A stretch of 64,000 bases of DNA, from the IMG/VR virus record IMGVR_UViG_3300042309_001504, positions 58,443 to 122,442 of that record; one strand, written 5' to 3'. The notes beneath the pieces were generated by a model. It was not told where the DNA came from and made no database searches. It worked only from the letters and a program-made list of their open reading frames with translations. This stretch comes from a virus. Below are positions 390 through 54,001 of the stretch, one piece after another. How positions within the stretch are numbered: position 1 is the first letter of the stretch; each line of letters starts with the position of its first letter. Both the position numbers and the translations under genes were made by a program.

Positions 390-787
390 GTTTTAATAAT
401 TTCTTCCCAAGAGTCGATGTTATCATACGATAAAACTATATATTTAATATTATTATTTTCGCACCATTCTTTTTTATTCTCATCTCTTTTTTTATGTTTC
501 ATAAATCCTAATACGGAATTATGAAAAAATTTATTAAACTTAAAATGTTGTTCACCATGAACTTCTACGCAAGTTTTTGTAAGAGGTAAATAAAAATCCA
601 TATATAGAGTTTCTGCTTTTCTTAATGGTATGGCTACTTCTTCTAAAATTTGTAGTGTAGGAAAACATTTATGTAATAGATCTCTTGCTTTAAGATGTAA
701 TGATGATTTATTTTGCATAGAACCATGGGAAATATTACCGATCAATTGCCAATGAACAGTATTATTATCTAAATCTTTTACTTGCAT
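386..787 (-). CDS. PD-(D/E)XK / DUF559-like endonuclease
   Basis: LYMDFYLP...VEVHGEQHF...RDENKKEWC motif pattern. Confidence 0.7.
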   Translation of the reverse strand: MQVKDLDNNTVHWQLIGNISHGSMQNKSSLHLKARDLLHKCFPTLQILEEVAIPLRKAETLYMDFYLPLTKTCVEVHGEQHFKFNKFFHNSVLGFMKHKKRDENKKEWCENNNIKYIVLSYDNIDSWEEIIKT

Positions 788-1797
788 TTTAATCCCATAG
801 TAGTTTTTATCTCATTCCATAAATCTTCGTACACTTTATTGTTATCTACTAAAAATTGTCTAGTTTTTTCTAAACCTTGAAATTTTGGTTTGTCTGGAGC
901 ACTTGTAAGAGTATACCATGCTCCGCCCTTGGATACAAGTCCCATATCAACAGCAAGAGTCAGTAATTCCATATATTTATCTATTCCTTGTCCATATCTT
1001 AAATAAGATGTTATTTTTCCTCCGGGTGGACCTAATGCTGAACATAATACTTGCCATTCGATTTCTTGTCCAATTTGAGGAGAATCGTCGGATAGATTCC
1101 ATGCTTTGAAATAAGTTGCTTTTAATTTAATATCCGTTTGATATGCTATAGCCTGTCCACTTTTTTCTTTCCATTCTACATATCCATTACCGGGATTACC
1201 CATCAAATGAGTTATACCTATAACAATATTTCTGTTCACAGGAATAACATTCGCAACTTTCCTACAAAATTTAGCTAATAATTTTGCCCCATCTGCTCTT
1301 TGCATTTTATTCATATCGCTTGTTATTTCTGCTTCTGTACACAATGCAGAATATGAGTCAATAATTAAAAGAGATCCTGGAATCTCATTAATAATTCTTT
1401 CTGCAATTTGTAAGTATTCTTCAGCATGTAATATTTTACCTGTTTGAGATCCAATCACATGAAATTTATCTAGATTTAATCCTGGTATTCCTTCCAAATC
1501 TCGTTTTTTCAATCGACCTTCAATATTTAGGTAGTACACATCCCTGCCATCTTTAAAAGAGCCGTAAGCATATTCTGGTTTTTGAGCATTTGCACAGAAT
1601 GCTAAAGAAGTCGTGGTTTTTCCACACTTTGGTTGTCCGGTTAGAATTACGAATGATCCTTCCGGAATACCACCATTTAATACAACATCAAGAGATGGAC
1701 TAATTGGTATAGTAATTAGATCTTTATCAACAACAGCATTTCCTGTTAGAATAACCTCAGAACCGAATGTTTTAGAAACATCTTCTTTAAGTCCCAT
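778..1797 (-). CDS. recA: RecA/UvsX-like recombinase
   Basis: SLDVVLNGGIPEG, Walker A GQPKCGKTT, Walker B LLIIDS, C-terminal GGAWY and KFQG. Confidence 0.9.
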   Translation of the reverse strand: MGLKEDVSKTFGSEVILTGNAVVDKDLITIPISPSLDVVLNGGIPEGSFVILTGQPKCGKTTTSLAFCANAQKPEYAYGSFKDGRDVYYLNIEGRLKKRDLEGIPGLNLDKFHVIGSQTGKILHAEEYLQIAERIINEIPGSLLIIDSYSALCTEAEITSDMNKMQRADGAKLLAKFCRKVANVIPVNRNIVIGITHLMGNPGNGYVEWKEKSGQAIAYQTDIKLKATYFKAWNLSDDSPQIGQEIEWQVLCSALGPPGGKITSYLRYGQGIDKYMELLTLAVDMGLVSKGGAWYTLTSAPDKPKFQGLEKTRQFLVDNNKVYEDLWNEIKTTMGLKCK

Positions 1798-20683: not shown

Positions 20684-20699
20684 AATATCTCCATTTAAT

Positions 20700-23426: not shown

Positions 23427-23428
23427 AT

Positions 23429-25546: not shown

Positions 25547-25549
25547 ATT

Positions 25550-25624
25550 TTAATTTAATAATGATTTATATATTTGATAAAGTACTGTAACTATTATGAT
25601 AAGACCAAAATTAATTTCTTCCAT
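25550..25624 (-). CDS. Putative 24-aa membrane peptide
   Basis: MEEINFGLIIIVTVLYQIYKSLLN exactly fills the intergenic gap. Confidence 0.35.
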   Translation of the reverse strand: MEEINFGLIIIVTVLYQIYKSLLN

Positions 25625-25625
25625 T

Positions 25626-26324: not shown

Positions 26325-26325
26325 T

Positions 26326-26655
26326 TTATGTTAATGCGTTATACTCAGATATAATATCAAAAACATTTTTACGAATATTAATTCTTTCTTCTGTCGTATA
26401 TCCTATATCGAACATAGAAGATTTGTCTTTATCTATATTAAATCCGTAATATATCTTTTCGCATATAGTATCTATTGTTTTAGCATCTATTTTTTTCTTT
26501 GTAAAAGAAGACATTAATTGTGTTAAAAGTTGAGACGCTGTTTTATCATTATAAATATTACAGCATCTTAGTCTTAACCAATTTAAATGTCTTAATATTT
26601 TAGTATTATCAATGCGATCCATAATAAACTTGAACGTTATAGTTAGCCCACGCAT
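26326..26655 (-). CDS. Hypothetical protein
   Basis: ORF within the operon; likely start MDRIDN. Confidence 0.5.
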   Translation of the reverse strand: MRGLTITFKFIMDRIDNTKILRHLNWLRLRCCNIYNDKTASQLLTQLMSSFTKKKIDAKTIDTICEKIYYGFNIDKDKSSMFDIGYTTEERINIRKNVFDIISEYNALT

Positions 26656-27169
26656 CCTCTATGAGTTTTTCTATAAAATTCCATTCTCCTCCAGATTTGC
26701 CACAACCAAATTTAGTAGTAATAATATTTATATCATCCAACTCATTTTTTCTATTCTTATTTAAGTATGAGCATACTGATTCCATAGTTTTTGACAAAGC
26801 TATATAGTCTAACGATCTATAATTTTTAGAATGTTTTTTACATATCATATTTGCAAAAATAATTTTACCAAAATTTTTACCATTAACATTTGGTATTTCT
26901 ACAAACTGAACTGTTCCATAATTTTTAGGACCACTAAGACAATACATATCTAGATTTATTTTGAGCTGTGGTAATAGGTCAAAAATAGTATGAGCAAATT
27001 TAGAATCATCTCTGGAATCTAGACTATAGCATTCTGGAATTAAAAAATTAGAAGTAACAGATGATCTATTATTAATTGTAGTATCAATAACTGATACTAT
27101 ATCTCCCTTAATATAAGATATATTTTTGGGTTTTGATAGATGATATTTTTTATACAATGGCGTTGTCAT
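26609..27169 (-). CDS. Macrodomain-like protein (divergent)
   Basis: YIKGDI, FANM, DYIAL, KFGCGKSGGEWNFIEKLI. Confidence 0.75.
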   Translation of the reverse strand: MTTPLYKKYHLSKPKNISYIKGDIVSVIDTTINNRSSVTSNFLIPECYSLDSRDDSKFAHTIFDLLPQLKINLDMYCLSGPKNYGTVQFVEIPNVNGKNFGKIIFANMICKKHSKNYRSLDYIALSKTMESVCSYLNKNRKNELDDINIITTKFGCGKSGGEWNFIEKLIEDAWANYNVQVYYGSH

Positions 27170-27186
27170 GTGTCCTCCATGAAACT

Positions 27187-27214
27187 ATTGTATAGCCTAA
27201 TCGTCTCAGGTCAA
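27187..27214 (-). promoter_or_regulatory. Sigma70-type promoter
   Basis: TTGACC-TGAGACGATTAGGCTA(16)-TACAAT, then GGAGG RBS. Confidence 0.7.
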
Positions 27215-27868
27215 TACCGAATATGCTTGTAGGAATTCTTCATAACTGTTGAATGGTTGATATCCTAATAGATTTTCGGTAGTCCAATCTATATTATCAT
27301 TAATAGTATTGAACACATCTTCATTGATAGACAAAAAATGATTTTTAGGTCTTTTAAACATTATCTTGTGTGGATAAGATACTATATGAAATTGTGATGA
27401 TATATTATGTTTGATATAAATTGTATTTTTGAGACTTAAAAAATTTTCAAATTGTAGTAGATATTTTTGATAAAATCTTAAATCATATAAATATTTTAGT
27501 TTATTGGATCTTAGTTCAAAAATATTTTTGTATCTTTGTCCATTATTCCAATTTCTGTCTTCATAAATTTCATTATTTGTAAATTCTATTTTTGACCACC
27601 ACTCATGTAATAAAAATTGTTTTAAATCTTTGTATGCAAAACCACAATGATGAGGTCTTTTGAATATTGCTACAAGCCAATCGTAAGGATTTCTTGTTAT
27701 ACAAAAAAATATTGTATCGTCTATGCTCTGATCTTCTAGATGTAATGGCGTAAAAAAATGTTTATGTCCAAACTGTTCAGTATATGGTAAATTAAAACTT
27801 TGAGTAATAAAATTCTGTAAAAAGTTTGTTCCAGTATGTCTTTCGCCATATATAGTAAATTGATTCAT
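27206..27868 (-). CDS. Sulfotransferase-like protein
   Basis: YGERHTGTNFL (5'-PSB), RNPYDWL (3'-PB). Confidence 0.75.
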   Translation of the reverse strand: MNQFTIYGERHTGTNFLQNFITQSFNLPYTEQFGHKHFFTPLHLEDQSIDDTIFFCITRNPYDWLVAIFKRPHHCGFAYKDLKQFLLHEWWSKIEFTNNEIYEDRNWNNGQRYKNIFELRSNKLKYLYDLRFYQKYLLQFENFLSLKNTIYIKHNISSQFHIVSYPHKIMFKRPKNHFLSINEDVFNTINDNIDWTTENLLGYQPFNSYEEFLQAYSVLT

Positions 27869-27887
27869 AATATAACTTAATATTATT

Positions 27888-28124
27888 TTACCATTTATTT
27901 AAAGGACATTTTTGATCAAGCCAAGCTAATTTATTCATAAATATTTTTTTATTATTAATATTACACCCACATTCTAAACATTGATTATTATGATATTTTG
28001 GACATTCTATACAAATATTATATCTAATATTAATTTGTTCTTGATTGGCTTTGGGCATACCGTATCCGATATGAAAAATTAAAGCTTTAATAAAATTAAT
28101 TATTTGTTTCATTTTTAATTTCAA
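27888..28124 (-). CDS. Small Cys-rich protein (DUF6171-like)
   Basis: RYNICIEC...QCLECGC...K...CPLNKW. Confidence 0.7.
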   Translation of the reverse strand: MKLKMKQIINFIKALIFHIGYGMPKANQEQINIRYNICIECPKYHNNQCLECGCNINNKKIFMNKLAWLDQKCPLNKW

Positions 28125-28341
28125 CTAATAGATTTTGTTCATTTTGATAAAAAATAAAAATTTGATCTACCATAGTATCATTATCTAACCATATAATATG
28201 TCCATTATTTAAATTAATACATAGTCTTTTGATATCATCTTTAGATTTTTTATAATCACTAGAAATTATATAACATAATTTATTATATAAAAATTTATTT
28301 CCATTTTGTAATTCTTCTAAATATTTCATTTTATTCCCCAT
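28096..28341 (-). CDS. Hypothetical protein
   Basis: 81-aa ORF within the operon. Confidence 0.5.
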   Translation of the reverse strand: MGNKMKYLEELQNGNKFLYNKLCYIISSDYKKSKDDIKRLCINLNNGHIIWLDNDTMVDQIFIFYQNEQNLLVEIKNETNN

Positions 28342-29078
28342 TTTTTATATCCCAATAAATCCCATTTGTTTAATAAATACTTTTCCGGTAATACTAGGTC
28401 GTATCTGTATCTATTGTATATAGAAGATTCTTTATAGTCTTTTTTAATAGATTCTATCATTAATTTTTTATATGATGCAATAGAAACATTTTCCTGTTTA
28501 CAGGATAAAAAAAAATCAACATGTTCGTGTCCGATTTTAATATTATTATCCCATTTGGGTATTTTATTTTTTTTAGCTAAAAAATGATTTAGGACAGCAT
28601 CGCAACCAAATATATCTCCATATGTATAATTTGACTGATAGCACGAAAGTATTCCGTTTGATATAGATATTTCATACGGTGGATTTGGACCAATAATATC
28701 GTAGTCAGACCTGCATAGTATATTATACATTTGTTTTAATATATTTGGATTTGGTGGCATATTGTCATCATCTGCTAAAAAAATATATTCAGTATTAGCT
28801 TCTAATATCGCAATATTTCTACCATAACTAAGTCCAACTATTTTATCTAAATATATATATTTAATGTTTTCTGTTAGTGATAGATTTGAATTTTTATGTT
28901 TTATTGGAGTATCATCAACCAAAATAATATTAATATTTGGATAATAAAGATTCCAAGTATTGATAATCTTTTGACAACATTCATATCTAATAAATGTTTT
29001 TAATAATATTGTAATATTACTATACCAAAATGGATATTCATTAAAAATTTCATCCCATGAATTTTGCATATTGTTCAT
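28326..29078 (-). CDS. GT2-family glycosyltransferase
   Basis: KTFIR, ILVDD, GLSYGRN, FLADDD, EHVDFF. Confidence 0.85.
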   Translation of the reverse strand: MNNMQNSWDEIFNEYPFWYSNITILLKTFIRYECCQKIINTWNLYYPNINIILVDDTPIKHKNSNLSLTENIKYIYLDKIVGLSYGRNIAILEANTEYIFLADDDNMPPNPNILKQMYNILCRSDYDIIGPNPPYEISISNGILSCYQSNYTYGDIFGCDAVLNHFLAKKNKIPKWDNNIKIGHEHVDFFLSCKQENVSIASYKKLMIESIKKDYKESSIYNRYRYDLVLPEKYLLNKWDLLGYKKWGIK

Positions 29079-29744
29079 TTATAAGAATAGTCCTAAGGAT
29101 AATGTTTGCATTTTAGTATTAATATATAAATCATAATCTTGTTTATATAATGTTTTAATTTTATCTATATTATTTTTATATAAATCTTTTTTAGAAAAAA
29201 TATATTTTGATGATCCGCTTTTATAGCTGTTATTTAACATAAAATTTAAATTATATTTATCGAATAGTTTATTAGATTGTTCAATAAAATTATCAAAACA
29301 TAATATATGAATATTATTTACATATTTTTTATTTATATAGTGATGTTGGTGTCCATATTGTCCAATAAATTTTGGTTTAATTTTATCTAATAAAATTGAT
29401 ATATTTTTATTAAAAGATTCTATATTATCATTATATCTATTATTGATTCCGTCATAATTGGCAAATGGCATATAGTATGTGCTTATAAATCTATCTAGTG
29501 GATTTCTAATAATTAAAAAAAAATTATAAGAATTCCATAAATTTGGATCATCTTTTAATAATAGATGCCATCTTGCTAGTTTGCTATTCTCACCATATAA
29601 ACATGAATATTTTGGATTTATATTTTTATGATACCATTTATCAAATCTGCCCCAATATATATTATTTTTTTGAGCAATATCTTCTATTGTTGTGCCGCCT
29701 GTTCTTGGAATATGAATAAATTTTAATTTTTTATCGTAAAGCAT
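29079..29744 (-). CDS. Sulfotransferase family 2 protein
   Basis: FIHIPRTGGTTI, RNPLDRFIS, YKQDYDL. Confidence 0.85.
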   Translation of the reverse strand: MLYDKKLKFIHIPRTGGTTIEDIAQKNNIYWGRFDKWYHKNINPKYSCLYGENSKLARWHLLLKDDPNLWNSYNFFLIIRNPLDRFISTYYMPFANYDGINNRYNDNIESFNKNISILLDKIKPKFIGQYGHQHHYINKKYVNNIHILCFDNFIEQSNKLFDKYNLNFMLNNSYKSGSSKYIFSKKDLYKNNIDKIKTLYKQDYDLYINTKMQTLSLGLFL

Positions 29745-36603: not shown

Positions 36604-37548
36604 ATGACAAAAGTTGCTATATTATCACGCTATAAAGAGACAGATACCACATGGTATAATATACTAAAAAATGAGTATGACAATGTTATTATTTTTAATA
36701 AATTTAATGGAAAAAATTTACTACCAAATGTTGGACGAGAAGGACACACATATTTATATTATATAGTAAATAATTATGATAATTTGCCTGATGAAATGTT
36801 ATTTAGCCAATACGATCCTACAGATCATTTTCATCGAAAAAATATTCATGAATATAGAGATATAAATCATATGAATTTTTTCTTAAAAAGTTCAATTTTA
36901 GATTTTATTTGTATTAATGCAAAAGATTATGATGTTTTTGTAAGAAAACGACCTGTAGATTGGATTAAATATTATAACTTATTATACAATAATAATATAG
37001 ACTTTAATCATGTGGTTTCAATTGGTGCTTGTTTGAATGGAGTATTTAGAGTAACAAAACAATCTGTACTTAGACATAGTAAAGATTTCTATGATAGAGC
37101 ATTGTCTATGCTATCGAAAGATAGACATCCAACAGAAGGATATTTTTTTGAAAGAGCATGGAAATATATTTTTACTAATTATGGTAATTGTCCAGAAAAA
37201 TATTCTTATTTATTAGATAGTGTGTGGTTATTTGGAAATGATATTATACAGAGTGTTCATAAAACAAGAAGAGATGAAGCTTATGGTCATTTAAAATTAT
37301 ATAGTGATGGTTTAATTGGTGGAAAAAACTTTAGTAGTTTATATGGAAATAGTAATGAACATTACTGGACAGTATATGAGGATAAATTCTATATTTTATC
37401 TGCTGAATCAGCCATAACATCTTGTTTTGTATTACCAGAGAATATAGATAATGTATCGCAGATTTTAGGAGACTATTACAGTCAGGATGGTATCTTAAAT
37501 AATTTTTTCTTTTTAAGAAAACCCATGTGGTCATACTATTTTAAATAG
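36604..37548 (+). CDS. DUF3431-family protein (paralog of 34501..35508)
   Basis: SRYKE, LPNVGREGHTYLYYIVNNY, FFERAW. Confidence 0.8.
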   Translation: MTKVAILSRYKETDTTWYNILKNEYDNVIIFNKFNGKNLLPNVGREGHTYLYYIVNNYDNLPDEMLFSQYDPTDHFHRKNIHEYRDINHMNFFLKSSILDFICINAKDYDVFVRKRPVDWIKYYNLLYNNNIDFNHVVSIGACLNGVFRVTKQSVLRHSKDFYDRALSMLSKDRHPTEGYFFERAWKYIFTNYGNCPEKYSYLLDSVWLFGNDIIQSVHKTRRDEAYGHLKLYSDGLIGGKNFSSLYGNSNEHYWTVYEDKFYILSAESAITSCFVLPENIDNVSQILGDYYSQDGILNNFFFLRKPMWSYYFK

Positions 37549-38279
37549 TCATCAATCCATTCAACATGATCACTTATTCTAGTATGAAAACTTTCTGTTT
37601 CATACTCATGAGTATTTTTATCATTTCTTGATACAAAAGAATGTATTCCTGCTAATTCATTACCAATAAATAATCCGCCTCCACTGTCACCATGAAATAT
37701 TAAAAACTCTAATTGTGTTTTATCCGATTTAAGAGATGGACTACAGACTAGAGTATTATTTTCTACTTTATCTATTTTATTTGATCCGGCTCTTCTTTTT
37801 CCGTCTGAAAATGTTTTACCAGATAAAAAATTACCTGTAGCACCATAACCGGCTAAAGAACATATTTTTCCAGATTCGTTTTTTTCTGTATACAAAGATG
37901 GATACCATTTTAATCCTATTGATTCATTTATATTTATTATAGCTATATCATTAAAGCCCTGTTTAGATATATCAAAATCTTTATGAGGAATAAAACTATC
38001 TATCAATATAATTTTATTATTTATACTAACTATATATTTATCATTTTTATCAATAAATACATGAGCAGCAGTCAGCAATACCCTATCACTAATTGCAACA
38101 CATGATCCAAAATATTTTTCCTTATTAGTTTGTGGATCTAAACAGATTATTTTACCCACATATACAAAATTCTCTGCATACGATATATGTTGTTTATCAG
38201 AGTTTGATGGATCTATTAAGCCACTATATGATATTGAAGATAATAAAGATAAAATTATTACTATTAGTAAGTTTTTCAT
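37536..38279 (-). CDS. Secreted trypsin-like serine protease
   Basis: Signal peptide; LTAAH, DIA, GDSGGG catalytic triad. Confidence 0.92.
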   Translation of the reverse strand: MKNLLIVIILSLLSSISYSGLIDPSNSDKQHISYAENFVYVGKIICLDPQTNKEKYFGSCVAISDRVLLTAAHVFIDKNDKYIVSINNKIILIDSFIPHKDFDISKQGFNDIAIININESIGLKWYPSLYTEKNESGKICSLAGYGATGNFLSGKTFSDGKRRAGSNKIDKVENNTLVCSPSLKSDKTQLEFLIFHGDSGGGLFIGNELAGIHSFVSRNDKNTHEYETESFHTRISDHVEWIDDYLK

Positions 38280-38326: not shown

Positions 38327-39220
38327 TTATATTTTACCAATTATTCTACCCTTTTGTGTTCTAATAGCATAGCCCATTCTGATCAAATATGGTTCGATAC
38401 TATTTTCTATAGTCTCAATAGCAATACCAGTTAAAGATGAAATGCTTTTTAATCCAACCGGATTTCCCTTTTGCTTTGACAAAATATCTAGATACATACG
38501 ATCATAGATATCTAATCCCATATTATCTATTCCTTGCACATTAAAAATCTCATCAACACTAAGATTTTTTTCTGGATTACAAATCTTATAATTTTTATAC
38601 CATTGAAGTCTACCATTTAGAATTCTAGGAGTACCTTTGCTGCGTTTAGCAATTTCTAGTAGATCCTCATCAGAAATAACAATATTCAACTTATCAGCAT
38701 TCGATCTTGCTAGTTTAGCTAAATCATTTGTAGTATAAAATGTAAGATGTTCTTTAATAATAAATCGATCATAAAATGGCTGACTTAAACTGCCTCCACT
38801 AGTTGTAGCACCAATCAGTGTGAATGATGGAAGATCAATAGTTTCTGGCGTTCCATTAACTGTTAAAGATAAACAAAAATCCTCCATGACAGGATATAAA
38901 AATTCTTCTACCAATTTTGGCAATCTATGAATCTCATCAATAAATAAAACAGACCTTGGTGCCATACCCATGATATATGGCATAATATTTTTAACACTTC
39001 TGATGTTAGCCGCATTGACGGTATATAGATTAACATTCAATTCGTTGGCTATTGCACTCGCTATGGTGGTTTTACCTAGCCCCGGAGGACCATCTATTAA
39101 AGTATGTGGCATCACAGTCGATGAACTTAAACAGCCAACCACAGATACCTTTAAACGATCAATCGGGCCACTCTGACCAATAATCTCATCAAATCTAGTA
39201 GGACGAATTCCTTTAGACAT
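38327..39220 (-). CDS. ruvB: Holliday junction branch-migration ATPase RuvB
   Basis: IRPTRFDEIIGQ, GPPGLGKTT, LFIDEIHRL, GATT, DRF, GTPRI, EPYLI...RTQKGR. Confidence 0.93.
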   Translation of the reverse strand: MSKGIRPTRFDEIIGQSGPIDRLKVSVVGCLSSSTVMPHTLIDGPPGLGKTTIASAIANELNVNLYTVNAANIRSVKNIMPYIMGMAPRSVLFIDEIHRLPKLVEEFLYPVMEDFCLSLTVNGTPETIDLPSFTLIGATTSGGSLSQPFYDRFIIKEHLTFYTTNDLAKLARSNADKLNIVISDEDLLEIAKRSKGTPRILNGRLQWYKNYKICNPEKNLSVDEIFNVQGIDNMGLDIYDRMYLDILSKQKGNPVGLKSISSLTGIAIETIENSIEPYLIRMGYAIRTQKGRIIGKI

Positions 39221-39605
39221 TTTTTATCTCCAATGATTGTAATGATAGTTTAACCAAATCTATAGTGCTAGTAAGAAAAGGATTGTTTTTGTAGGTCTTA
39301 CTCAGAATATTATCTGCTTCTGCTTTTGTAAAACCATATTGTTGCAATAAGGGGCTTGCTTGATTTAATAGTTCTTTTGGAATATTAATTTCTTTTGTTT
39401 CTGTTTTTGGTTCTATTTTTTCTTCATAAACAACATCTAGACTTTTGATTTGTTTAGGCTTAAAAATAAACCCACATTCACAAACAACTTTGAAATTTTT
39501 TGTTTGAGTTTCTTTGAGTGAAAGCCAATGAGTATAATAACACTCATTATTTGGACATCTATATTCTAGATGACAATTTAGATTAATCGGTTTCTGGAGT
39601 TTCAT
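39213..39605 (-). CDS. Zn-ribbon plus RuvA C-terminal (domain III)-like protein
   Basis: CPNNEC...CEC; C-terminal QASPLLQQYGFTKAEADNIL...TIDLVKLSLQSL; overlaps the ruvB start. Confidence 0.6.
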   Translation of the reverse strand: MKLQKPINLNCHLEYRCPNNECYYTHWLSLKETQTKNFKVVCECGFIFKPKQIKSLDVVYEEKIEPKTETKEINIPKELLNQASPLLQQYGFTKAEADNILSKTYKNNPFLTSTIDLVKLSLQSLEIKNV

Positions 39606-39996
39606 CTTCTTTGCACCAAAATACAAAATCATTTATTTCATGATCATAGGCTGACTCTATCAATCCCTTACTAACCAATGATGATAGTAAATTACTAACC
39701 AAACGTGTGTTCAATGCTTCTACTATTTTAAGAAATATTTCTTCATCAAGAACATATCTAATTTGATTTGTGTGTTTATTAGTTTGCTTTTTAAGAAGAT
39801 TTTTAACTATTACCATAGATTCTTGTTGAGTTAAAACTTTATTAAGTTCTTCCAATGATACATTATCTAGTTTTGCAAACATTTGATCTATAGCATCATC
39901 TTCTGATTCTGCATTTTTTCCAAAACTGTTATAGACCACTTTTCTAGTGGACTCAGTAAACTCATCTAAGTTATCGACTATGTATAATTCTGACAT
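39583..39996 (-). CDS. Hypothetical protein (paralogous C-terminus with 55186..55542)
   Basis: LSSLVSKGLIESAYDHEINDFVF. Confidence 0.6.
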   Translation of the reverse strand: MSELYIVDNLDEFTESTRKVVYNSFGKNAESEDDAIDQMFAKLDNVSLEELNKVLTQQESMVIVKNLLKKQTNKHTNQIRYVLDEEIFLKIVEALNTRLVSNLLSSLVSKGLIESAYDHEINDFVFWCKEDETPETD

Positions 39997-40005
39997 AATT
40001 TTCCT

Positions 40006-40398
40006 TTAGTTTAGAATATCAAACAATCCCTTATAATAATGAGGCTGTAATATAAAATGTACAGCATGACTTTGAATGTGGTTTAAGTATTCTCTGGCTA
40101 ATCTAGCATTGGCAAAATACTCTTTTTTCCATATTGGTTGTTTCTGATAATTACTCCCCAAATACTGGAAGGTTTTATCCTTACCAGTATTGGAGAAGTA
40201 ACTATTCACAGGAAACGATTTTTTGGGAAAATTTATATACCATACATTTGGTGATCCTTCGACTACATCGTTTAGGGCATCATATAGCATTTTACCCCAA
40301 GCATCCCATGCAGCAGGATCAAACTTAAAATAGTGCTTATATTTGTCTTGAGCATCATCATAATCATGATCGTCATCATAGTCATAATCTTCATTCAT
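40006..40398 (-). CDS. Hypothetical protein with acidic N-terminus
   Basis: Start moved to MNEDYDY because the 5' extension overlaps a structured RNA. Confidence 0.6.
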   Translation of the reverse strand: MNEDYDYDDDHDYDDAQDKYKHYFKFDPAAWDAWGKMLYDALNDVVEGSPNVWYINFPKKSFPVNSYFSNTGKDKTFQYLGSNYQKQPIWKKEYFANARLAREYLNHIQSHAVHFILQPHYYKGLFDILN

Positions 40399-40420
40399 TT
40401 TATTTAATCTCTGGTAGAAA

Positions 40421-40507
40421 ATAGTGGGAGGGAATCGAACCCTCTCATATAGCGTATGTTTAAAATTTAAACCAGAGGCTATCATCTTAGTCGCCAGACC
40501 CACCTAT
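40421..40507 (-). ncRNA. tRNA-like structured RNA (non-canonical)
   Basis: Perfect T-arm GAGGG-TTCGATT-CCCTC; terminal stem ATAG(G)TGG/CCACTAT; no canonical anticodon arm. Confidence 0.55.
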
Positions 40508-40514: not shown

Positions 40515-41366
40515 TCAATAGTTTTGATCTAAATCATCTTCGTATTCATCTTCATCTTCATACTGATCCCAGTAATCATCATCATACTCATCATACAACT
40601 GCTCTTCATCCTCATCATAAGAATCTTCGCTAAACTCAGCCTTATAAAGAGGCTTTAGTAGTTCGCCTTGATATTCGCCAACAACTTCATATCTACAAGT
40701 ACGAAGTTTCTCATGATTACAATCACTAGGAACGCTGACCACATCCTTCGGATTAATCTTAACAATCATAATATGATCACCATTATCAGCACTACCATAA
40801 TTAGCCACATAGTTTAAAGCACCAGCATGAAGTCCCTGAGAACAACCAACGCTACGATTGTCATCGACTTTAGCCCTATTCATTTGGCAAACTTTACCAA
40901 CATGATTGTCAAATGTGCCAGCATACTTATCCATATAATCACTACGAACAGCCTTGTATGCTAGAAAATGACCATCCTCAGTAATTGGTAGATGTTCATG
41001 CTCCAAGAAATCATACAGTTCCTTTTGACTTTGCATACTGGGATTTTCCATAAGATTATTCAAAAAGTTTACAAGAGGCTGAAATGGCAGTCCCTTACTC
41101 ATAAACTCTAGAATACGTTTACTAATGCTACCATGAACTTCTTCACCATCAAAAAGCACCTTGCCGTTCTTGACTTCAACAAGACCATCACTAAATGACG
41201 ATACTGCCTTTTCAATATCCACCAGTTCTAGCAACTCATCATTTGTTGCTGTTGGTAGAGCCTCAAGAATCAACTTGTAATTGATATGATCAGGAATAAC
41301 TTGATAAGCCTTATTATTCAAGATCAACGTCAAATTACCATCAACCCACATAAACGGAACGCTCAT
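40515..41366 (-). CDS. rIIB: rIIB-like protein
   Basis: LPITEDGHFLAYKAV, CSQGLHAG, KINPKDVVSVPSD, KLRTCRYEVV. Confidence 0.9.
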   Translation of the reverse strand: MSVPFMWVDGNLTLILNNKAYQVIPDHINYKLILEALPTATNDELLELVDIEKAVSSFSDGLVEVKNGKVLFDGEEVHGSISKRILEFMSKGLPFQPLVNFLNNLMENPSMQSQKELYDFLEHEHLPITEDGHFLAYKAVRSDYMDKYAGTFDNHVGKVCQMNRAKVDDNRSVGCSQGLHAGALNYVANYGSADNGDHIMIVKINPKDVVSVPSDCNHEKLRTCRYEVVGEYQGELLKPLYKAEFSEDSYDEDEEQLYDEYDDDYWDQYEDEDEYEDDLDQNY

Positions 41367-41392: not shown

Positions 41393-44047
41393 TTATTTGA
41401 TCAAAACACTTAGACTATTTCTTAACTGTTCAATACCGTTTTCATCAATAGTTACAAACCATGCTGGCGGATTATAGTAACGATTATGATGTACTCTAAG
41501 TGGATTGGAGGAACCTATTCCGGTCAATCCAGCATCAGAACCATTTACTTCCAACGCACTGCTCATAATATACTTGAGCATCGGCACCTTGTCAACCTCC
41601 GCTTTAAACCTTTTTCTAAGATCACTACTTTTCGTTATTGACTCACAAAAATCTTTGGATTCTTGAGAAATCGATACCATCTTAGATGTATAATCTACAC
41701 TATACATAGTATTGATCTCGCTCTTTAAGATATTAAACTCTTGAGTTTGTTTACGAATCTTCTCAGGATCAATACCATTCATATTATGCTTTGCTAATAT
41801 TTTTGCCATAACAGCAAAGTATTCTGACTTCTTACAAAACTTCATATCAAAACTATTATGAATAACATGAGCAAAAAAGTAATGAATCATCCATTGATCG
41901 ACCAGATTACAAAGTTCCGATCCACCAATATACTTATCATAATCAATACCAAAAATGCTTAGAATAGTAACCGCTATGTGCCTATCTGCACGAATCCTAT
42001 AATAACCATAAGTCTCATTCTTCTCGTCTGCATTATACTGTTCAGTACAGTAGTCCACAATATTCTTATATGATCCAACTTCTCCACAGAGTTTACTCAT
42101 CATACTCTTTAATTGAGGCTTGATCCAAGCATTGAAATCAACAAGATTCAAATCTTTGATCTTACTAACAGCACTCTGCTTGATAGCAAGAATATTCTTG
42201 TCTTTCAATAGATTGTGAAGAGTATGATTTTTATCTTTAATGATTTTATTAAGATAAGAGATAGATGGAAACCCTTCTACCGAAGCATACCTAATAATAG
42301 GAATATAAATTGTCTCGTCTTGATCTTCAATAGTTTCATAGGTATCTTCGTCTACTTCTCTTAGAAGATCAGAATCATTTATTCCATTACCAGATAGTAC
42401 TAGTTTATCATTAGCGTCTGGACAACCACCAATAATAAAAACCTCACCAGCACTAATCTGACCAAAAGAAACGCTACTCTTGCGTGGTCCCTTGCTAAGT
42501 AGACTACGATAATCAGAAACATTAACTACATTAGTTTCTCCGCCGATATCACTGATGATATCATCAAAACCTTCCGTAGAATCTTCTGGATGACTACTAT
42601 CCACCATAAGATAAGCAAAGCAATCATTTTGATTACAATACTTTGTCACAATCTTTTTGGCAGTTTCTTCACCCTTAATATCACAGCGGAAAAAGATCAT
42701 TTTACCACTCTTTTTGGTTCCGCTCCAATAGTATTGAGGAACCCCCTTGAGTGTTTCGTTATGAATTTTATCTGTTAGATAAACCATACGACGAGAGCGA
42801 TAGCCGGATGTTCTAAAATTAAAAACATACAACTGCTTATTTTTCTTGAACTTATATTCAAGATCTTTACCACTAGTTAATTCGTGGGTCTTGCCAGACT
42901 GGTCTATCCATGATGCACCAGCGGTCCATCCGCCAGCAAGATCGCTCAGATTATAATAGGTCTGATAAGCATCTACCAGATTAGTACACTGAGTAATCTT
43001 TTGAGTCATATCTTCTTTGAGTTGAAGATAAATATCTTGAGTTCTTTCACGCAAAACTTTAATAACATTTTTTGTATACTGTAAGCCTTCACGACTCACA
43101 TCCATTTCCAATTCACCAATATCAAAATTGATTTCAAGATATAGGCCGGACCCTAGAACCTCCTTGACTAGATTCTTCCAGTTATCAACATCTACCTTTT
43201 TAAAGGTACGATTCCATTTCTGGATAGCGTCATTGGATGTATCTTTTTCTGCTTCTCCAATAATCTTTGAACTATCAACAGGATAAGCAATATTACCCAT
43301 GATAGCAACAATACCACTATCAGCATTGTTATATGCTGAAGGATATTGATCATTATTATTTGCTAGTCTACCAATCCTCCAGCCCTTACCATCAATAACA
43401 AAATTAGTATAAGAATACGAATGATCTGACAGATTCTCTCCAAAACCGCCCTCAATAATGGGCTTCATTTTGAAGTAATGGAAAATTCTTTTTGCTTTGG
43501 TAGTAAACTCGCCAAAATCACACTGTTTAACAGCAAAACTAATTTCAAGACCGTTAGGCTCTTTAGTTGCACTAATATCAAACAGATTAAGACTAGGAAC
43601 ACCATTCTCATCCATAGCCGCAATATAAGAATACTTAGTTCCGTTGTAATAAGATACTGTGCTAAAACTCTTGGTATAAGCAAATGGACTCTTGCTACCT
43701 AATCCAAGACAACCAACAAAATCATTACTATCATTCTTGTTGCTTGCACCATAAGTGGTATATAGTTCCTCCATATCTTGCTGACTAAGACCAGTGCCAT
43801 AATCACGCACAGTAAAAGATGGAACCGCTTGTGTTGGCAGAATAACCTTAAAAGGATTCTTGTTGCCGGCAGCAACGTGAGCATCATAAGCATTAGTGCT
43901 TAGTTCACGAATAACCGCCATAACCTTATCAGAATACAGAGAATCCGAAAGGATTTTAAACATTTTGCTCGTTTGAGCAATAGTAAATTGGTTGCTACTT
44001 TCCAAACCCCTACTATGAATTTCAACTGTTCGATCCGCGAGTTTCAT
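41393..44047 (-). CDS. rIIA: rIIA-like protein (GHKL ATPase N-terminus)
   Basis: LSDSLYSDK, IRELSTNAYDAH, VRDYGTG, GCLGLGSKSPFAY, SREGLQY; start moved to MKLADR. Confidence 0.9.
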   Translation of the reverse strand: MKLADRTVEIHSRGLESSNQFTIAQTSKMFKILSDSLYSDKVMAVIRELSTNAYDAHVAAGNKNPFKVILPTQAVPSFTVRDYGTGLSQQDMEELYTTYGASNKNDSNDFVGCLGLGSKSPFAYTKSFSTVSYYNGTKYSYIAAMDENGVPSLNLFDISATKEPNGLEISFAVKQCDFGEFTTKAKRIFHYFKMKPIIEGGFGENLSDHSYSYTNFVIDGKGWRIGRLANNNDQYPSAYNNADSGIVAIMGNIAYPVDSSKIIGEAEKDTSNDAIQKWNRTFKKVDVDNWKNLVKEVLGSGLYLEINFDIGELEMDVSREGLQYTKNVIKVLRERTQDIYLQLKEDMTQKITQCTNLVDAYQTYYNLSDLAGGWTAGASWIDQSGKTHELTSGKDLEYKFKKNKQLYVFNFRTSGYRSRRMVYLTDKIHNETLKGVPQYYWSGTKKSGKMIFFRCDIKGEETAKKIVTKYCNQNDCFAYLMVDSSHPEDSTEGFDDIISDIGGETNVVNVSDYRSLLSKGPRKSSVSFGQISAGEVFIIGGCPDANDKLVLSGNGINDSDLLREVDEDTYETIEDQDETIYIPIIRYASVEGFPSISYLNKIIKDKNHTLHNLLKDKNILAIKQSAVSKIKDLNLVDFNAWIKPQLKSMMSKLCGEVGSYKNIVDYCTEQYNADEKNETYGYYRIRADRHIAVTILSIFGIDYDKYIGGSELCNLVDQWMIHYFFAHVIHNSFDMKFCKKSEYFAVMAKILAKHNMNGIDPEKIRKQTQEFNILKSEINTMYSVDYTSKMVSISQESKDFCESITKSSDLRKRFKAEVDKVPMLKYIMSSALEVNGSDAGLTGIGSSNPLRVHHNRYYNPPAWFVTIDENGIEQLRNSLSVLIK

Positions 44048-44081
44048 AAAAGTCTCCAAAAGTGTTTCCTGTGATGCGTCC

Positions 44082-44110
44082 ATTATAGCATCGTCATCGT
44101 AGCGTGTCAA
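44082..44110 (-). promoter_or_regulatory. Consensus sigma70 promoter for rIIA-rIIB
   Basis: TTGACA-CGCTACGATGACGATGC(17)-TATAAT. Confidence 0.9.
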
Positions 44111-45590: not shown

Positions 45591-45675
45591 TGGGATAGGT
45601 GGGAGTCGAACCCACACTCCTATAATTGGAAATGGATTTTGAGTCCATCGCGTCTGCCAATTCCGCCACAATCCC
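45591..45675 (-). tRNA. tRNA-Leu(CAA)
   Basis: GGGATTGTGGCGGAATTGGCAGACGCG; anticodon arm ATGGA-CTCAAAA-TCCAT; long variable arm; GTGGG-TTCGACT-CCCAC; CCA not encoded. Confidence 0.95.
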
Positions 45676-48389: not shown

Positions 48390-48938
48390 TCACTTCTTTC
48401 TAATTAGCCAACTGCCATCCCTGAATAAATTCAAATCTTGGATAGAATAATGGTGTGTTAATAAAAAATTATTGACACTGCTCATTACATCGGGCCATTT
48501 ATTATTGTAATCATGACCAGTTAAAAATCCACCACTCTTAATTTTAGGATAATAGTTTTTAATATCTTGACTAATATGATCCATCTGATGATTACCATCT
48601 ATATAAACAACATCAAATGTTTCATCACTAAAATAGCCTTTACTATTATCTGATAATGAATTTATAATATTATATCTACAAGTTTTTATTTCCTGAGAAA
48701 ATTTTTGTTCTAAAATATTACAGGCATCCAATGAACACTCTACACAATATATCTTTTTAATTTGATGAAAACCTAACAATAGTGTTGATGATTCTCCCAA
48801 ATGAGATCCTATTTCTAGCCAAGATTCGATCTTAGGCTGAATAGTCAATATAAAATTAACTAGATCTAAAAATCCTATAACCTGATATATATTATTCTCT
48901 TCCCAGTGAGGAAAAAATCTAACAGACTTGAGATTCAT
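48390..48938 (-). CDS. Class I SAM methyltransferase (Methyltransf_24-like)
   Basis: LEIGSHLGES, FDVVYIDGNH, GGFLTGHDY. Confidence 0.85.
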   Translation of the reverse strand: MNLKSVRFFPHWEENNIYQVIGFLDLVNFILTIQPKIESWLEIGSHLGESSTLLLGFHQIKKIYCVECSLDACNILEQKFSQEIKTCRYNIINSLSDNSKGYFSDETFDVVYIDGNHQMDHISQDIKNYYPKIKSGGFLTGHDYNNKWPDVMSSVNNFLLTHHYSIQDLNLFRDGSWLIRKK

Positions 48939-49626
48939 TATTTTCTAAAACCCATGACCAGTATCTACTATCTTCCTTTTCTTGTAAAGCGTCCCAATAA
49001 ATTGATCGTGCAATATACGATGGAACATTCAACTTACCACAATTCACACTCCAATGCTGTTCCATACGCTTATATTTATCTGCACCGTTCCTACTTTTAT
49101 TATAGGTCAAATGCTCCATTCCATATAAACGCAATTGATGAACATCGCCACACAATACTCTACACTCATTAGGATGAATCATCTCCAGTGCAAAACTAAC
49201 TTTAGCCATACCAAGACCCATAATACGATTCACAATGGAATCACGCTTTTTAACATGATACTTTTTGGTAGTAAGATAAAAATCTTTCGGATTCTGCCAA
49301 AACTGTTGACTAAAGTTCCAAATATACTTGGTGCGATTATTATGCAATCCTACACCAGAGTTGGCAAGTTTATCTCTTAATTTTTCTTGATCATCAATCC
49401 ATTCATCAAAATTCTTAATGGCTTGATAACCAGAGCAATTACCTTTCCAAGTTGTATGAACAGAGCAGTAAGCAAATAAATAACGCCTAAAAATATCAGA
49501 GGTATTCTGTGGGCGTACACTTTCCCAGTATTCCTTATATGATACAGTCTTTTCTCTAGGAAAGTTTGCAAAAAATTCATCAGCCTTACTCCTACAATAT
49601 GTTGTTTTCTTTTCTGTAGTTTCCAT
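48919..49626 (-). CDS. HhH-family DNA glycosylase-like protein (OGG-type)
   Basis: HNNRTKYI, GLGMAKVSFAL (HhH), CGDVHQLR. Confidence 0.65.
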   Translation of the reverse strand: METTEKKTTYCRSKADEFFANFPREKTVSYKEYWESVRPQNTSDIFRRYLFAYCSVHTTWKGNCSGYQAIKNFDEWIDDQEKLRDKLANSGVGLHNNRTKYIWNFSQQFWQNPKDFYLTTKKYHVKKRDSIVNRIMGLGMAKVSFALEMIHPNECRVLCGDVHQLRLYGMEHLTYNKSRNGADKYKRMEQHWSVNCGKLNVPSYIARSIYWDALQEKEDSRYWSWVLENNESQVC

Positions 49627-49658
49627 GTTTGCTCCAATAGTGCTATGCCAATGTTTGA

Positions 49659-49687
49659 ATTATACGTTATCTAACTATCGTTGTCAA
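49659..49687 (-). promoter_or_regulatory. Consensus sigma70 promoter
   Basis: TTGACA-ACGATAGTTAGATAACG(17)-TATAAT. Confidence 0.9.
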
Positions 49688-49692
49688 GACCA

Positions 49693-49998
49693 TCATCTGT
49701 ATATCGGTTGGTAAACCCACTCTATTGAGGGCTGATAAATTATATAACTATATCTACAAAACAAACACCTTTTTTCTATTACAATTGGCTTGTTAATAGT
49801 ATAAGGAACCCAACCATAAGTTATGCTAACGGGTCTTAACATAGTAGAATAAGTTACAGATGGTATTAATGGAACCTCTACTACAGGTTGGGTTAAAACT
49901 GGTACGGGTGCTGGTATATAAGGAACCCATACATCATTAGCAAATGAAATATTTGTTAAAAAACATAATAGCAATCCTAGTGATAATTTACTTTTCAT
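49693..49998 (-). CDS. Secreted Pro/Val/Tyr-rich small protein
   Basis: Signal peptide ending SFA; two WVPY repeats. Confidence 0.6.
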   Translation of the reverse strand: MKSKLSLGLLLCFLTNISFANDVWVPYIPAPVPVLTQPVVEVPLIPSVTYSTMLRPVSITYGWVPYTINKPIVIEKRCLFCRYSYIIYQPSIEWVYQPIYR

Positions 49999-50015
49999 TT
50001 TTTAAATCTCCTTAT

Positions 50016-51323
50016 TTATATTGTTCGAGACAATCCATGTAAAACTTTAAAAGTTGGAAAACGCAAACTCAAACCACCATCTTGGTTCTTGCTTTCTTCA
50101 AAATACTGTACAGTTATAACTTTACCAAGAATTTTGTTAGGATTCTTGTAAAAATCTTGTCTTTGTTCAATACTAAAACCAGATCCTACACGAACATTGT
50201 AACCCTTATGTTTAATAGTAACACAACTAAGCATATTTTCTTCAGTTTCCTTACTATCTTTTACATATCGAAATGGTCCCATTTCTACATCTACCACTTC
50301 GTATTCATCGTCAAAAAAACTTTTAAACTTGAGAAGGTCTTTGCTTCGCTTGCCTTTATATGGTTCATCAGCACGAAGCATTAAACCCTCCCAACCATAT
50401 TCTTTTGCTTTTTCTATCCATTCAGCAAAATGCTCATCATCCGCAATAAATTCTTGATCCAGAACAGAGAGACATGGACATTCATTGTCTCTCATTTGAT
50501 AACATAAGCTTTTATAGCGATAAGAGTATGTATTGCTGGGATTTCCCTTCTTACTATAGAATTCATCATGACTAATCATATCAAAAATCTTATACGAAGG
50601 ATTTGAAATAGTATGATCCTTCTTTTTAAGTTGCTTCATAATTCCTTGAAAATCTTCATTACCATTATCATCAACAAGACACAACTCTCCATCAAAAACT
50701 ACATTAGTAATACCCAAAGCCTTAATCCCACCAGCAACAACACCAAGAGTATCAAATTCTTTTCCTGTACGGGAATAGAAAGTAGTGTCGCCATTACTAT
50801 CAACAATAGCGATACATCTAGCCCCGTCAATTTTGCGACTAACATACCATCCATCCTTCCAATCTACAATATTTGGATCATATTTATCTGCCAAAGCAAC
50901 ACTAAACTCTGGAATATGGTCAGGAATAGCCTTATTAATAATCTTATCACCAGCACGGGTTTTCAAATCTTTATCAATGATACAATGAATGAGTTCATCA
51001 AAATATGGATAACTATCAATAAAGGTATTTACTGCACCAATAGCATCGTGACCAGTAATCTTACGACTCTTTAGATCATCAAGCAAAACGAAGAAATTCT
51101 TATATTCTTTTCCGCGAAGTTTAGATTTCTTCTTGAGATTATCACTTGTGACATTATACTGCCAAAGAGGATGATAGGTGTAAAGAAGAATCTTCTTGGC
51201 AAAATTTGCAGCCTCAGAACTATGATTACAATAGTCCTCAATAATACCCACCTTATCAATAGTACTACTTGTGGCCCTAAGATCACGAACCATTCCCAAA
51301 ACATAATTAAAATCGTGAGTCAT
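50016..51323 (-). CDS. ATP-dependent DNA ligase
   Basis: KIDGARC, FDGEL, IFD, WEGLMLR, LLKFK, VGSGFS, LRFPTF. Confidence 0.95.
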   Translation of the reverse strand: MTHDFNYVLGMVRDLRATSSTIDKVGIIEDYCNHSSEAANFAKKILLYTYHPLWQYNVTSDNLKKKSKLRGKEYKNFFVLLDDLKSRKITGHDAIGAVNTFIDSYPYFDELIHCIIDKDLKTRAGDKIINKAIPDHIPEFSVALADKYDPNIVDWKDGWYVSRKIDGARCIAIVDSNGDTTFYSRTGKEFDTLGVVAGGIKALGITNVVFDGELCLVDDNGNEDFQGIMKQLKKKDHTISNPSYKIFDMISHDEFYSKKGNPSNTYSYRYKSLCYQMRDNECPCLSVLDQEFIADDEHFAEWIEKAKEYGWEGLMLRADEPYKGKRSKDLLKFKSFFDDEYEVVDVEMGPFRYVKDSKETEENMLSCVTIKHKGYNVRVGSGFSIEQRQDFYKNPNKILGKVITVQYFEESKNQDGGLSLRFPTFKVLHGLSRTI

Positions 51324-51383: not shown

Positions 51384-52205
51384 TTAAAGATTGTACTCGT
51401 AATCAATTAATTTTATATCATTTAAATAATCGTCTAAATTAGAGATACTTTTAATGTGAGCGTCAGGATCGAAAGTTTGTTTTAAAAAAGTTTCTGTATC
51501 TTTAAGAATAAAATTTGGTAATATTTTTTGTATGTATTGTTTTTTATCTAATAAATTTAATGAATGTAAATCTTCATAACATATTTTAATATAGTCTTTA
51601 TTTTTTCTGTTAAGAATATTTATTGTTTTTTCTAAATTAGAAACTATATTATATTTATATTGTAAAAATTCTATTTTATTCCAGATTACTTGAGTATCCA
51701 AAAGTTTAAAATTATTATCTAATGTATTTGACCACTGATCGTCTATGATTGCTTTTTTTAAGCTTATATAAGAATGTACTAGATTTTTTCTATAATTAAC
51801 AATAATAATATCACAAGAATCTATTATCTTTTCCAAAGGAATATCTGTAGTTTCATGCTCAAAAAAAAATTTAAATATAAAGTTTTTGTTTAATTTATAG
51901 GCTTGTCTTTTAAAAGCGTCTAGCAAATCCATACTATAGATTTTTTTATTCCTATAAAATATAGATAAATTATTATGTATTTCTCTATTTATCCAAAAAT
52001 TATTCCTATCATATATTTGATTGAAAGTTTTAATAATATCATCTTCTATATTTGAAACTACTAATAGATCAGAAATTTTTCTAAAAAATTCTAAATAATC
52101 ACGACAAAATAATTCCGCCATGTATAAAGAATTATTGCCATATAATATATCTCCGAGCCAATTAGATCCAGTTCTAGGATATGTGATTATACCAAGGGTT
52201 TTCAT
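51384..52205 (-). CDS. Sulfotransferase (Stf0-like)
   Basis: PRTGSNWL, ELF, YRKNLVHSYIS, YEDL. Confidence 0.75.
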   Translation of the reverse strand: MKTLGIITYPRTGSNWLGDILYGNNSLYMAELFCRDYLEFFRKISDLLVVSNIEDDIIKTFNQIYDRNNFWINREIHNNLSIFYRNKKIYSMDLLDAFKRQAYKLNKNFIFKFFFEHETTDIPLEKIIDSCDIIIVNYRKNLVHSYISLKKAIIDDQWSNTLDNNFKLLDTQVIWNKIEFLQYKYNIVSNLEKTINILNRKNKDYIKICYEDLHSLNLLDKKQYIQKILPNFILKDTETFLKQTFDPDAHIKSISNLDDYLNDIKLIDYEYNL

Positions 52206-52402
52206 TTTGAAAAAACTTTATTAAGTTTTTTAATAAGATTAGATCCTGTATCCTGAAAAAAACATGGTAGTATAGCATGTACTAATAGATATAATCCAGA
52301 TAATAGTGCAATAAAACCATATGTTGATGCAAAAAACATATGCTCAAAATATGTCATATTATTTTCTTTTAAATGTCTATTCCATTTTTTTATTAATTGC
52401 AT
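52202..52402 (-). CDS. Small membrane protein (DUF6356-like)
   Basis: HLKENNMTYFEHM...LVHAILPCFF. Confidence 0.7.
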   Translation of the reverse strand: MQLIKKWNRHLKENNMTYFEHMFFASTYGFIALLSGLYLLVHAILPCFFQDTGSNLIKKLNKVFSK

Positions 52403-52751
52403 CTTGTTTTCTTCTATTTTTAGACATTATCAAATAGTTGGCAGCCTTAATAATACCTTCTAAGTTATCTCCTAGTTTTCCTATCCCGGTATTACACCTA
52501 TCGCATGTCCAGCCCCTAAAACTATGATCATCATGATCGTGGTCTAATCTCCATTCCGATGGAATCTTACCACAACATTCGCAATGTAATGGCTTTGGCG
52601 GTGCTAATTTATGTAATTTATGTCTAATCTTAGCGTGTTTTTTAACACAAGATCGACATCTCTTATCTAGATTATCTTTAAAATGACAATGCTTAGGAAA
52701 AGATTTTCTATTTTTCCTTTTGCCACAATATGTGCAAATTTTTCTAAGCAT
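52377..52751 (-). CDS. Endonuclease VII domain protein
   Basis: CECCG, LDHDH, RGWTCDRCNTGIG. Confidence 0.88.
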   Translation of the reverse strand: MLRKICTYCGKRKNRKSFPKHCHFKDNLDKRCRSCVKKHAKIRHKLHKLAPPKPLHCECCGKIPSEWRLDHDHDDHSFRGWTCDRCNTGIGKLGDNLEGIIKAANYLIMSKNRRKQDAINKKME

Positions 52752-53983: not shown

Positions 53984-54001
53984 AGTAGTACTTTCTATTA
54001 G

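Follow-up and report, generated by a model that had tools for sequence, protein, structure and literature searches.

Can a RuvB motor be run by a partner that lacks the junction-reading part of RuvA? The classical machine for branch migration in bacteria is RuvAB, and in current models domains I and II of RuvA read the Holliday junction and domain III holds and drives RuvB. The question is raised by a locus in the virus record IMGVR_UViG_3300042309_001504 of IMG/VR, of which we analysed one stretch of 64,000 nucleotides (the window; positions 58443-122442 of the 122,442-base-pair record). All coordinates below refer to the window unless marked as record coordinates. Here, an intact ruvB is preceded by an overlapping gene for a small protein, hereafter the adaptor, which combines a predicted Cys4 zinc ribbon with a three-helix bundle resembling RuvA domain III. 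We consider it probable that the two form a translationally coupled motor of the RuvAB type that acts on branched DNA, with the adaptor as a cut-down RuvA. The parts of the locus are the following:

38327..39220, minus strand: ruvB, 297 amino acids, AAA+ Holliday-junction motor with large ATPase, lid and winged-helix head domains
39213..39220, minus strand: 8-nucleotide overlap of adaptor stop and ruvB start, suggesting translational coupling
39213..39605, minus strand: zinc-ribbon/RuvA-domain-III-like adaptor, 130 amino acids from the Met codon at 39605
39432..39599, minus strand: Cys4 zinc ribbon of the adaptor, residues 12-67
39381..39431, minus strand: variable charged linker, residues 68-84
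39216..39380, minus strand: three-helix bundle like RuvA domain III, residues 85-139

The Met codon at 39605 is equivalent to the start of most adaptor homologues. An in-frame ATG further upstream, at 39632, extends the open reading frame (ORF; 39213-39632, minus strand) to 139 amino acids, and adaptor residue numbers refer to this longer frame. A first-pass annotation, made from the letters of the window without database searches, had described a 130-residue gene overlapping an intact ruvB. The ORF was confirmed, with an overlap of 8 nucleotides (ATGTCTAA), and the strings quoted from its product, CPNNEC...CEC and QASPLLQQYGFTKAEADNIL...TIDLVKLSLQSL, are present in the translation.

The ruvB gene is likewise intact, as all three RuvB domains were matched above their Pfam cut-offs: RuvB_N (3.6e-42; 144.3 bits, cut-off 27), AAA_lid_4 (7.2e-09; 35.7 bits, cut-off 27) and RuvB_C (2.1e-18; 66.4 bits, cut-off 24.7). 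In a search of the PDB, residues 21-319 of E. coli RuvB aligned at 2.3e-61, and all other solved RuvBs also matched. The Walker A (GPPGLGKT) and Walker B (DEIH) motifs align with E. coli RuvB, as do E113-D114, R152 and R199, which we take to be the trans-acting acidic pair, the arginine finger and the sensor-2 arginine. All of these positions are invariant in 38 of 38 RuvBs of the clade. A presensor-1 beta-hairpin is present at approximately residues 115-130 and is four residues shorter than that of E. coli RuvB; the region preceding it, around helix 75-86, has a sequence unlike the E. coli protein. With its full domain set and catalytic residues, the protein is an intact member of the RuvB family, for which ATP-driven branch migration can be predicted. 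It shares about 40% identity with cellular RuvBs. A tblastn search of a collection of isolated phages returned 80 records, all below 60% identity (best 40.1%). Most full-length matches among them were unannotated metagenomic or prophage-type records, and we suspect that the full-length matches are bacterial ruvB genes; the partial matches were clamp loaders or RarA. A search of PHROGs gave no RuvB-specific family, and clamp-loader families scored best.

The adaptor belongs to a large family: a word-indexed search recovered 53 relatives, and an exhaustive profile search extended these to at least 369 clusters at 50% identity (E <=0.001), 233 of them at <=1e-10. A domain search at the 90% clustering level yielded 716 proteins. 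The 120 matches listed from it are all 110-161 amino acids long, and the 150 cluster representatives listed of the 369 range from 80 to 184 amino acids and share a common layout. No fused proteins or other zinc-ribbon architectures were seen among these listed matches (120 of 716 proteins and 150 of 369 representatives). Across 141 aligned, diverse members, C26, C31, C51 and G100 never vary, and conservation reaches at least 90% at H35, W36, C53 and E105. The family looks viral, because its members were found at 73 IMG/VR loci, no cellular member was confirmed and the neighbouring Atlas clusters are 94-100% viral. Scanning 185,579 species genomes for the adaptor by pattern yielded nine matches, none of which was confirmed, and a tblastn search of isolated phages with the adaptor returned no relatives. 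Automatic labels on family members are inconsistent: one reads Tex/SPT6 and others YbcC, and two members are annotated as 'Holliday junction resolvasome RuvABC DNA-binding subunit'.

To which known domain, then, does the C-terminal bundle correspond? The AlphaFold2 model of the adaptor (mean predicted local distance difference test, pLDDT, 85.1) contains helices at residues 86-97, 103-116 and 123-138. The likeness to RuvA domain III, the RuvB-binding part of RuvA, that the first-pass annotation had read from the C-terminus falls below threshold in Pfam, yet family profiles and fold searches rank this domain first. A profile of 53 sequences searched against the PDB returned domain III of T. thermophilus RuvA (1ixs_A) as the first match (E 0.0018). 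With 141 sequences, the same chain was matched at E 2.6e-4, and the best six matches were all RuvA, aligned exactly on domain III. RuvA_C is also the commonest Pfam match within the family (20 of 141 members at E <=0.1, best 1.5e-5). A VIA-align comparison with 48,161 representative chains placed RuvA domain III in the top four positions (Z 7.7, 7.0, 6.5 and 6.3), with superpositions of 1.6-2.0 root-mean-square deviation over 48-51 residues, and Foldseek again ranked it top (probability 0.98, E 0.43). In one Atlas cluster, RuvA_C was assigned to 50% of the members, and RuvA families were among the structural neighbours over residues 84-139. Conservation within the bundle centres on G100 and on E105, the latter invariant in the 53-member set; L96, Y99, F101, K128 and L131 are also conserved. 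Since sequence, fold and gene position agree, we read the bundle as a remote homologue of RuvA domain III rather than a curated family match, and consider this reading well supported.

Conservation in the adaptor is highest in the N-terminal module, where the mean column identity is 68%, compared with 45% for the whole protein. The first Cys pair of this module is spaced either C-x4-C or C-x2-C and its second is always C-x-C in the family alignment. In addition to C26, C31, C51 and C53, the conserved residues include H35 and W36. In the model, where the ribbon alone reaches a pLDDT of 93.6, beta strands run over residues 21-25 and 34-38, and the two Cys pairs sit on beta-hairpin knuckles. The Cys4 ribbon noticed at first sight is not a chance pattern, given the conservation of its four cysteines across the 141 members, and we interpret it as a zinc ribbon that is predicted to bind zinc. 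Its median net charge among the 53 members is +5, and that of the domain-III bundle is about neutral. The linker between the two modules measures 15-40 residues (median 26 in 53 members) and is modelled with lower pLDDT (block mean 71). Structural comparison of the ribbon by VIA-align gave generic zinc ribbons alone (ZitP, LysW, S27e and IBR, Z <=3.7), and Foldseek gave nothing at E <1. A profile of the ribbon against the PDB returned nothing significant, only insignificant matches to the CxC knuckle of L31.

We next consider whether the bundle fits the RuvB encoded beside it. A complex was modelled from RuvB with a 38-row alignment and adaptor residues 80-139 with a 53-row alignment. All three runs gave an interface score ipSAE (interaction prediction score from aligned errors) of 0.64, and the highest-scoring of the three controls reached 0.22. 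Of 80 solved complexes, 58 pass the ipSAE mark, as do 2 of 110 mismatched pairs. The runs agreed in at least 90% of their contacts, and the partner pLDDT was 85-86. On RuvB, the contacts involve residues 66, 68, 75-77, 80-82, 84-86, 107, 117, 119, 121-122, 126 and 128, which form a helix and a hairpin. On the adaptor, they involve residues 99-101, 105, 127-128 and 131-137, and so include the conserved positions Y99, G100, F101, E105, K128 and L131. A composite site for domain III on RuvB, made of helix alpha3 and the presensor-1 hairpin, is described in the accessible passages of Wald et al., 2022 (PMC9477746), which also present domain III as a nucleotide-exchange factor and ATPase activator. 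The model supports a placement of the adaptor bundle on this canonical site, formed here by helix 75-86 and the presensor-1 hairpin. Contact with the RuvB beta-hairpin, on which the first-pass idea of a RuvB-binding handle depended, was thus predicted by a model that passes its controls, through helix 75-86 together with hairpin residues 117-128. What the complex model shows is likeness and not binding.

The genetic linkage of the two genes is strict. We examined 76 viral loci, duplicates included, which represent 57 distinct protein pairs; one locus is a fragment of 395 nucleotides. In each of the other 75, which are long enough for the gene order to be read, ruvB comes immediately after the gene for the adaptor. 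The distance from adaptor stop to ruvB start ranges from -29 to +3 nucleotides (57 distinct pairs, 75 loci), start calls being approximate. In the window, a GGAG lies 7 nucleotides before the ruvB ATG.

The position of the adaptor gene is that of ruvA, and we asked whether a complete RuvA is encoded in the adaptor or elsewhere. RuvA_N (PF01330) was found neither in the adaptor nor in its own record (88% complete by CheckV), nor in any of five relatives rated 100% complete (149.5-223 kb), while a control search was positive in 10 of 14 reference genomes. A canonical ruvA, which would have spoken against the first-pass proposal, was therefore not matched in any of these six records. The sole RuvA_C match in the own record is the adaptor itself. 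HHH_5 was absent from the adaptor at E <=1, and the own record as a whole gave one weak HHH_5 match (14.2 bits), in an unrelated frame of about 3,897 amino acids. The earlier suggestion that a zinc module stands in place of the junction-binding part of RuvA agrees with these results: domains I and II were not found in the adaptor, and the Cys4 ribbon occupies their place. Because domains I and II were sought and not found, the adaptor is not a member of the RuvA family, but its sequence and model predict that it works like RuvA's domain III.

A search for alternative motors covered the own record and the five complete relatives, together referred to as the six clade records. Helicase_C was found in none of the six, against two of two controls (T4 uvsW and the HTVC008M helicase), and ResIII scored above its cut-off in none of the six, against both controls (T4 and HTVC008M). 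A search of the six records with the HTVC008M helicase protein likewise gave no match. Conversely, RuvB_N was present in all six clade records and in neither T4 nor HTVC008M. RuvC (PF02075) is absent from the own record. Two genes distant from the adaptor bear on the pathway in which the pair might act:

778..1797, minus strand: RecA-like recombinase (PF00154 2.1e-19, above cut-off)
52377..52751, minus strand: Endonuclease VII-type candidate junction resolvase (PF02945 1.5e-10), unlinked to ruvB

These observations suggest the following mechanism. RuvB would act as a complete hexameric AAA+ translocase on double-stranded DNA. The adaptor would retain the flexibly tethered, RuvB-binding domain III alone, its basic Cys4 ribbon replacing the OB-fold and helix-hairpin-helix domains. 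A free RuvA domain III fragment modulates the RuvB ATPase. The domain-III-like bundle of the adaptor may recruit RuvB and drive its nucleotide cycle in the manner of RuvA domain III, and the zinc ribbon, placed on DNA or on a DNA-bound phage protein, could be the fixed point against which RuvB pulls DNA. Branched DNA arising from the RecA-like recombinase, the likely source of strand-exchange intermediates, would be the substrate that the pair migrates or remodels. The Endonuclease VII-type nuclease may cut the resulting junctions, as no RuvC is found in the own record. The first-pass annotation had proposed that Endonuclease VII could substitute for RuvC; the gene and the absence of RuvC were both borne out, and the substitution itself, like the placement of this protein in the same pathway as RuvB, is something we infer. 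Taken as a whole, the pair may fill the role held in T4-type phages by a superfamily 2 (SF2) helicase such as UvsW.

Several points weigh against this reading. The adaptor itself scores 16.5 bits with Pfam RuvA_C, against a cut-off of 24; no more than 20 of the 141 family members match RuvA_C even at E <=0.1; and the Foldseek E value is weak. The pass of the complex model may reflect memory of solved complexes of RuvA domain III and RuvB (1IXS, 7PBL), and the model relied on alignments that we built ourselves. DNA binding by the ribbon is argued from charge and conservation, because no specific match to the ribbon was found. With the tetrameric core of RuvA gone, no element is seen that would recognise a four-way junction. 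The own record is also no more than 88% complete. Lastly, a replacement of UvsW would be a functional analogy rather than a traced displacement, as the recombinase is RecA-like.

The most basic challenge is that the bundle might be a generic UBA-like three-helix bundle, and the adaptor an unrelated zinc-finger regulator that lies upstream of ruvB by chance. Sequence scores are marginal, and UBA, CUE and other bundles follow RuvA domain III at Z 4-5 in VIA-align, which also counts against our reading, so that the fold alone is not decisive; the Tex/SPT6 and YbcC labels on family members point the same way. Yet RuvA domain III came first by three separate methods, the adaptor gene stands in the ruvA position and is coupled to ruvB at every locus, and the conserved positions of the family coincide with the modelled RuvB contacts. 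We give this explanation very little credence. Scarcely better placed, and in our view quite improbable, is an anti-host function, in which the domain III mimic would block host RuvAB at the RuvB hairpin or capture host RuvB, leaving the phage RuvB to act unaided or to rely on RuvA of the host. Decoys of host interaction modules are common among phage genes, and isolated domain III suffices to occupy the RuvB site in 1ixs and 7x7p. A decoy, however, would not be expected to overlap or abut the phage ruvB in 75 of 75 loci or to give a complex model with the phage RuvB that passes controls, and the altered helix 75-86 and shorter hairpin of this RuvB suggest a cognate, co-diverged pair.

Closer to our reading are views in which the motor is real and its target differs. 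The adaptor could retarget RuvB away from Holliday junctions, a possibility raised in the first-pass annotation. Its ribbon would then be docked on RNA, on R-loops or on a protein of phage or host origin (replisome, SSB, recombinase, nuclease, packaging or defence-related factor), and RuvB would serve there as a general pump or remodeller of double-stranded DNA. The absence of the junction-reading domains I and II fits this view, as does a ribbon conserved above domain III, which would suit a constrained, specific partner; its fold neighbours also include the protein-binding IBR, LysW and ZitP. No docking partner emerged from the analysis, however, a basic ribbon fits direct nucleic-acid binding equally well, and the genome encodes a recombinase and a junction nuclease and no other branch-migration motor. 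We regard such retargeting as unlikely. In its broader form, which we hold to be likewise unlikely, the adaptor would found a new class of AAA+ adaptors that uncouples RuvB from Holliday-junction recognition and turns it into a general DNA-remodelling motor. It would anchor on a different nucleic-acid structure or on a replisome or recombination protein of the phage, and RuvB would carry out fork reversal and R-loop or protein clearance, the jobs of UvsW in T4. If this were true, domain III alone would be a portable 'RuvB handle' re-used in evolution. On balance, we favour a RuvAB-type motor on branched DNA.

The surroundings of the pair are conserved as well. At the examined loci, the recurring gene order is rIIB, a 165-amino-acid gene, a 137-amino-acid gene, the adaptor gene and ruvB, and the corresponding genes of the window are:

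41393-44110: rIIA
40515-41366: rIIB
40006-40503, minus strand: conserved gene of 165 amino acids, between rIIB and the adaptor
39583-39996, minus strand: conserved gene of 137 amino acids, between rIIB and the adaptor

Neither of the two conserved proteins matched a Pfam or PHROG family. They are syntenic throughout and may belong to the module. The 137-residue protein was considered as a hidden junction-binding subunit; it is acidic, and its structural neighbours, weak winged-helix or RepA_N-like matches with template modelling (TM) scores of 0.41-0.47, derive from a poor Atlas model (pLDDT 0.56). A DUF3431 protein (Pfam) is also encoded near the locus. Directly downstream of ruvB lies a gene for a trypsin-family protease with a hydrophobic N-terminus (37536-38279, minus strand; 1.5e-15); a minority of the related loci also carry a homologue on the downstream side of ruvB, and its distance from ruvB varies.

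The window has a guanine plus cytosine content of about 30% and carries nearly all of its genes on the minus strand. Its source is a large uncultured tailed phage and no close relative of T4, because the best matches of its recombinase among isolated phages are mycobacteriophage RecA-like genes (28.7% identity), not T4-type UvsX. The label 'T4-like' was considered on account of rIIA and rIIB and dropped in view of this RecA-like recombinase. Near the Endonuclease VII gene lie three further genes:

48919-49626, minus strand: Ogg-type 8-oxoguanine glycosylase
50016-51323, minus strand: ATP-dependent DNA ligase
52751-53983, minus strand: DUF1501 protein, full-length (1.3e-99)

ARAGORN detected a transfer-messenger RNA (54001-54351, minus strand) with the tag peptide GTNQLALAA and a tRNA-Leu(CAA) (45591-45675, minus strand). 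Elsewhere in the record, a DnaB-like helicase, a primase and a DNA polymerase in two ORFs are encoded. The polymerase ORFs (record 49418-51016 and record 51872-53710, both minus strand) match consecutive halves of phrog_405 (56-613 and 622-1065), and the roughly 850 nucleotides between them may contain an intron or homing element. Outside the window, record 17421-29105 (plus strand) holds one open frame of about 3,894-3,897 amino acids, the one with the weak HHH_5 match, followed by ORFs of 1,148 and 1,332 amino acids, which are probably giant structural or fibre proteins.

What distinguishes this locus is that a natural phage system appears to keep just the RuvB-holding and RuvB-driving job of RuvA, joined to a zinc ribbon, across hundreds of clusters. 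The adaptor and RuvB would thereby form a minimal natural system in which to ask whether domain III, with whatever anchor, suffices to run RuvB. The analysis also gives a predicted function to a widespread family of 'hypothetical proteins' and corrects the stray labels Tex/SPT6 and YbcC. A RuvB encoded by a virus is itself of note: the accessible text of a survey of 224 jumbo-phage genomes (Iyer et al., 2021; PMC7824862) mentions phage RuvC without a RuvB-like ATPase and does not report a RuvB alongside it. Our literature search found no publication on a phage RuvB with a zinc-ribbon/domain-III partner; subscription papers and supplements lay outside the search, and an earlier mention is possible.

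The phage module resembles the bacterial RuvA-RuvB system, as represented by the T. thermophilus structures 1IXS and 1IXR and by the 7PBL series from S. thermophilus and S. typhimurium (accessible passages of PMC9477746), in that a ruvA-like gene lies directly upstream of ruvB and is coupled to it. The full RuvB domain set and catalytic residues are also shared, as is a partner that ends in a tethered domain-III-like bundle. Unlike bacterial RuvA, the adaptor has neither the OB-fold domain I nor the (HhH)2 domain II, that is, the tetrameric junction-binding core; the phage module is, moreover, encoded by a virus, and its RuvB hairpin is four residues shorter. RuvA and RuvB of Mycoplasma provide a precedent, in the accessible part of PMC3364216, for RuvB homologues that depart from classical RuvA-dependent branch migration. 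Mycoplasma still has a RuvA homologue, however, and a zinc ribbon plays no part there.

The recombination set of T4-type phages comprises UvsX, UvsY and UvsW, as stated in the accessible text of Iyer et al., 2021 (PMC7824862). Of these, UvsW (with UvsW.1), an SF2 helicase for branch migration and fork remodelling, likely does the equivalent job in phage recombination-dependent replication. The distributions of the UvsW marker and of RuvB are complementary across the six clade records and T4/HTVC008M, which suggests that this phage group has solved branch migration without an SF2 helicase. UvsW is a monomeric SF2 helicase, whereas RuvB forms a hexameric AAA+ ring, and no common ancestry is implied. 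The nearest structural counterpart of the adaptor is isolated RuvA domain III bound to RuvB, as in 1IXS and in 7X7P ('dsDNA-RuvB-RuvA domain3 complex'), where a domain of the same size occupies the RuvB site without domains I and II. Those two are laboratory truncations, whereas the phage version is natural, fused to a zinc ribbon and spread over at least 369 clusters.

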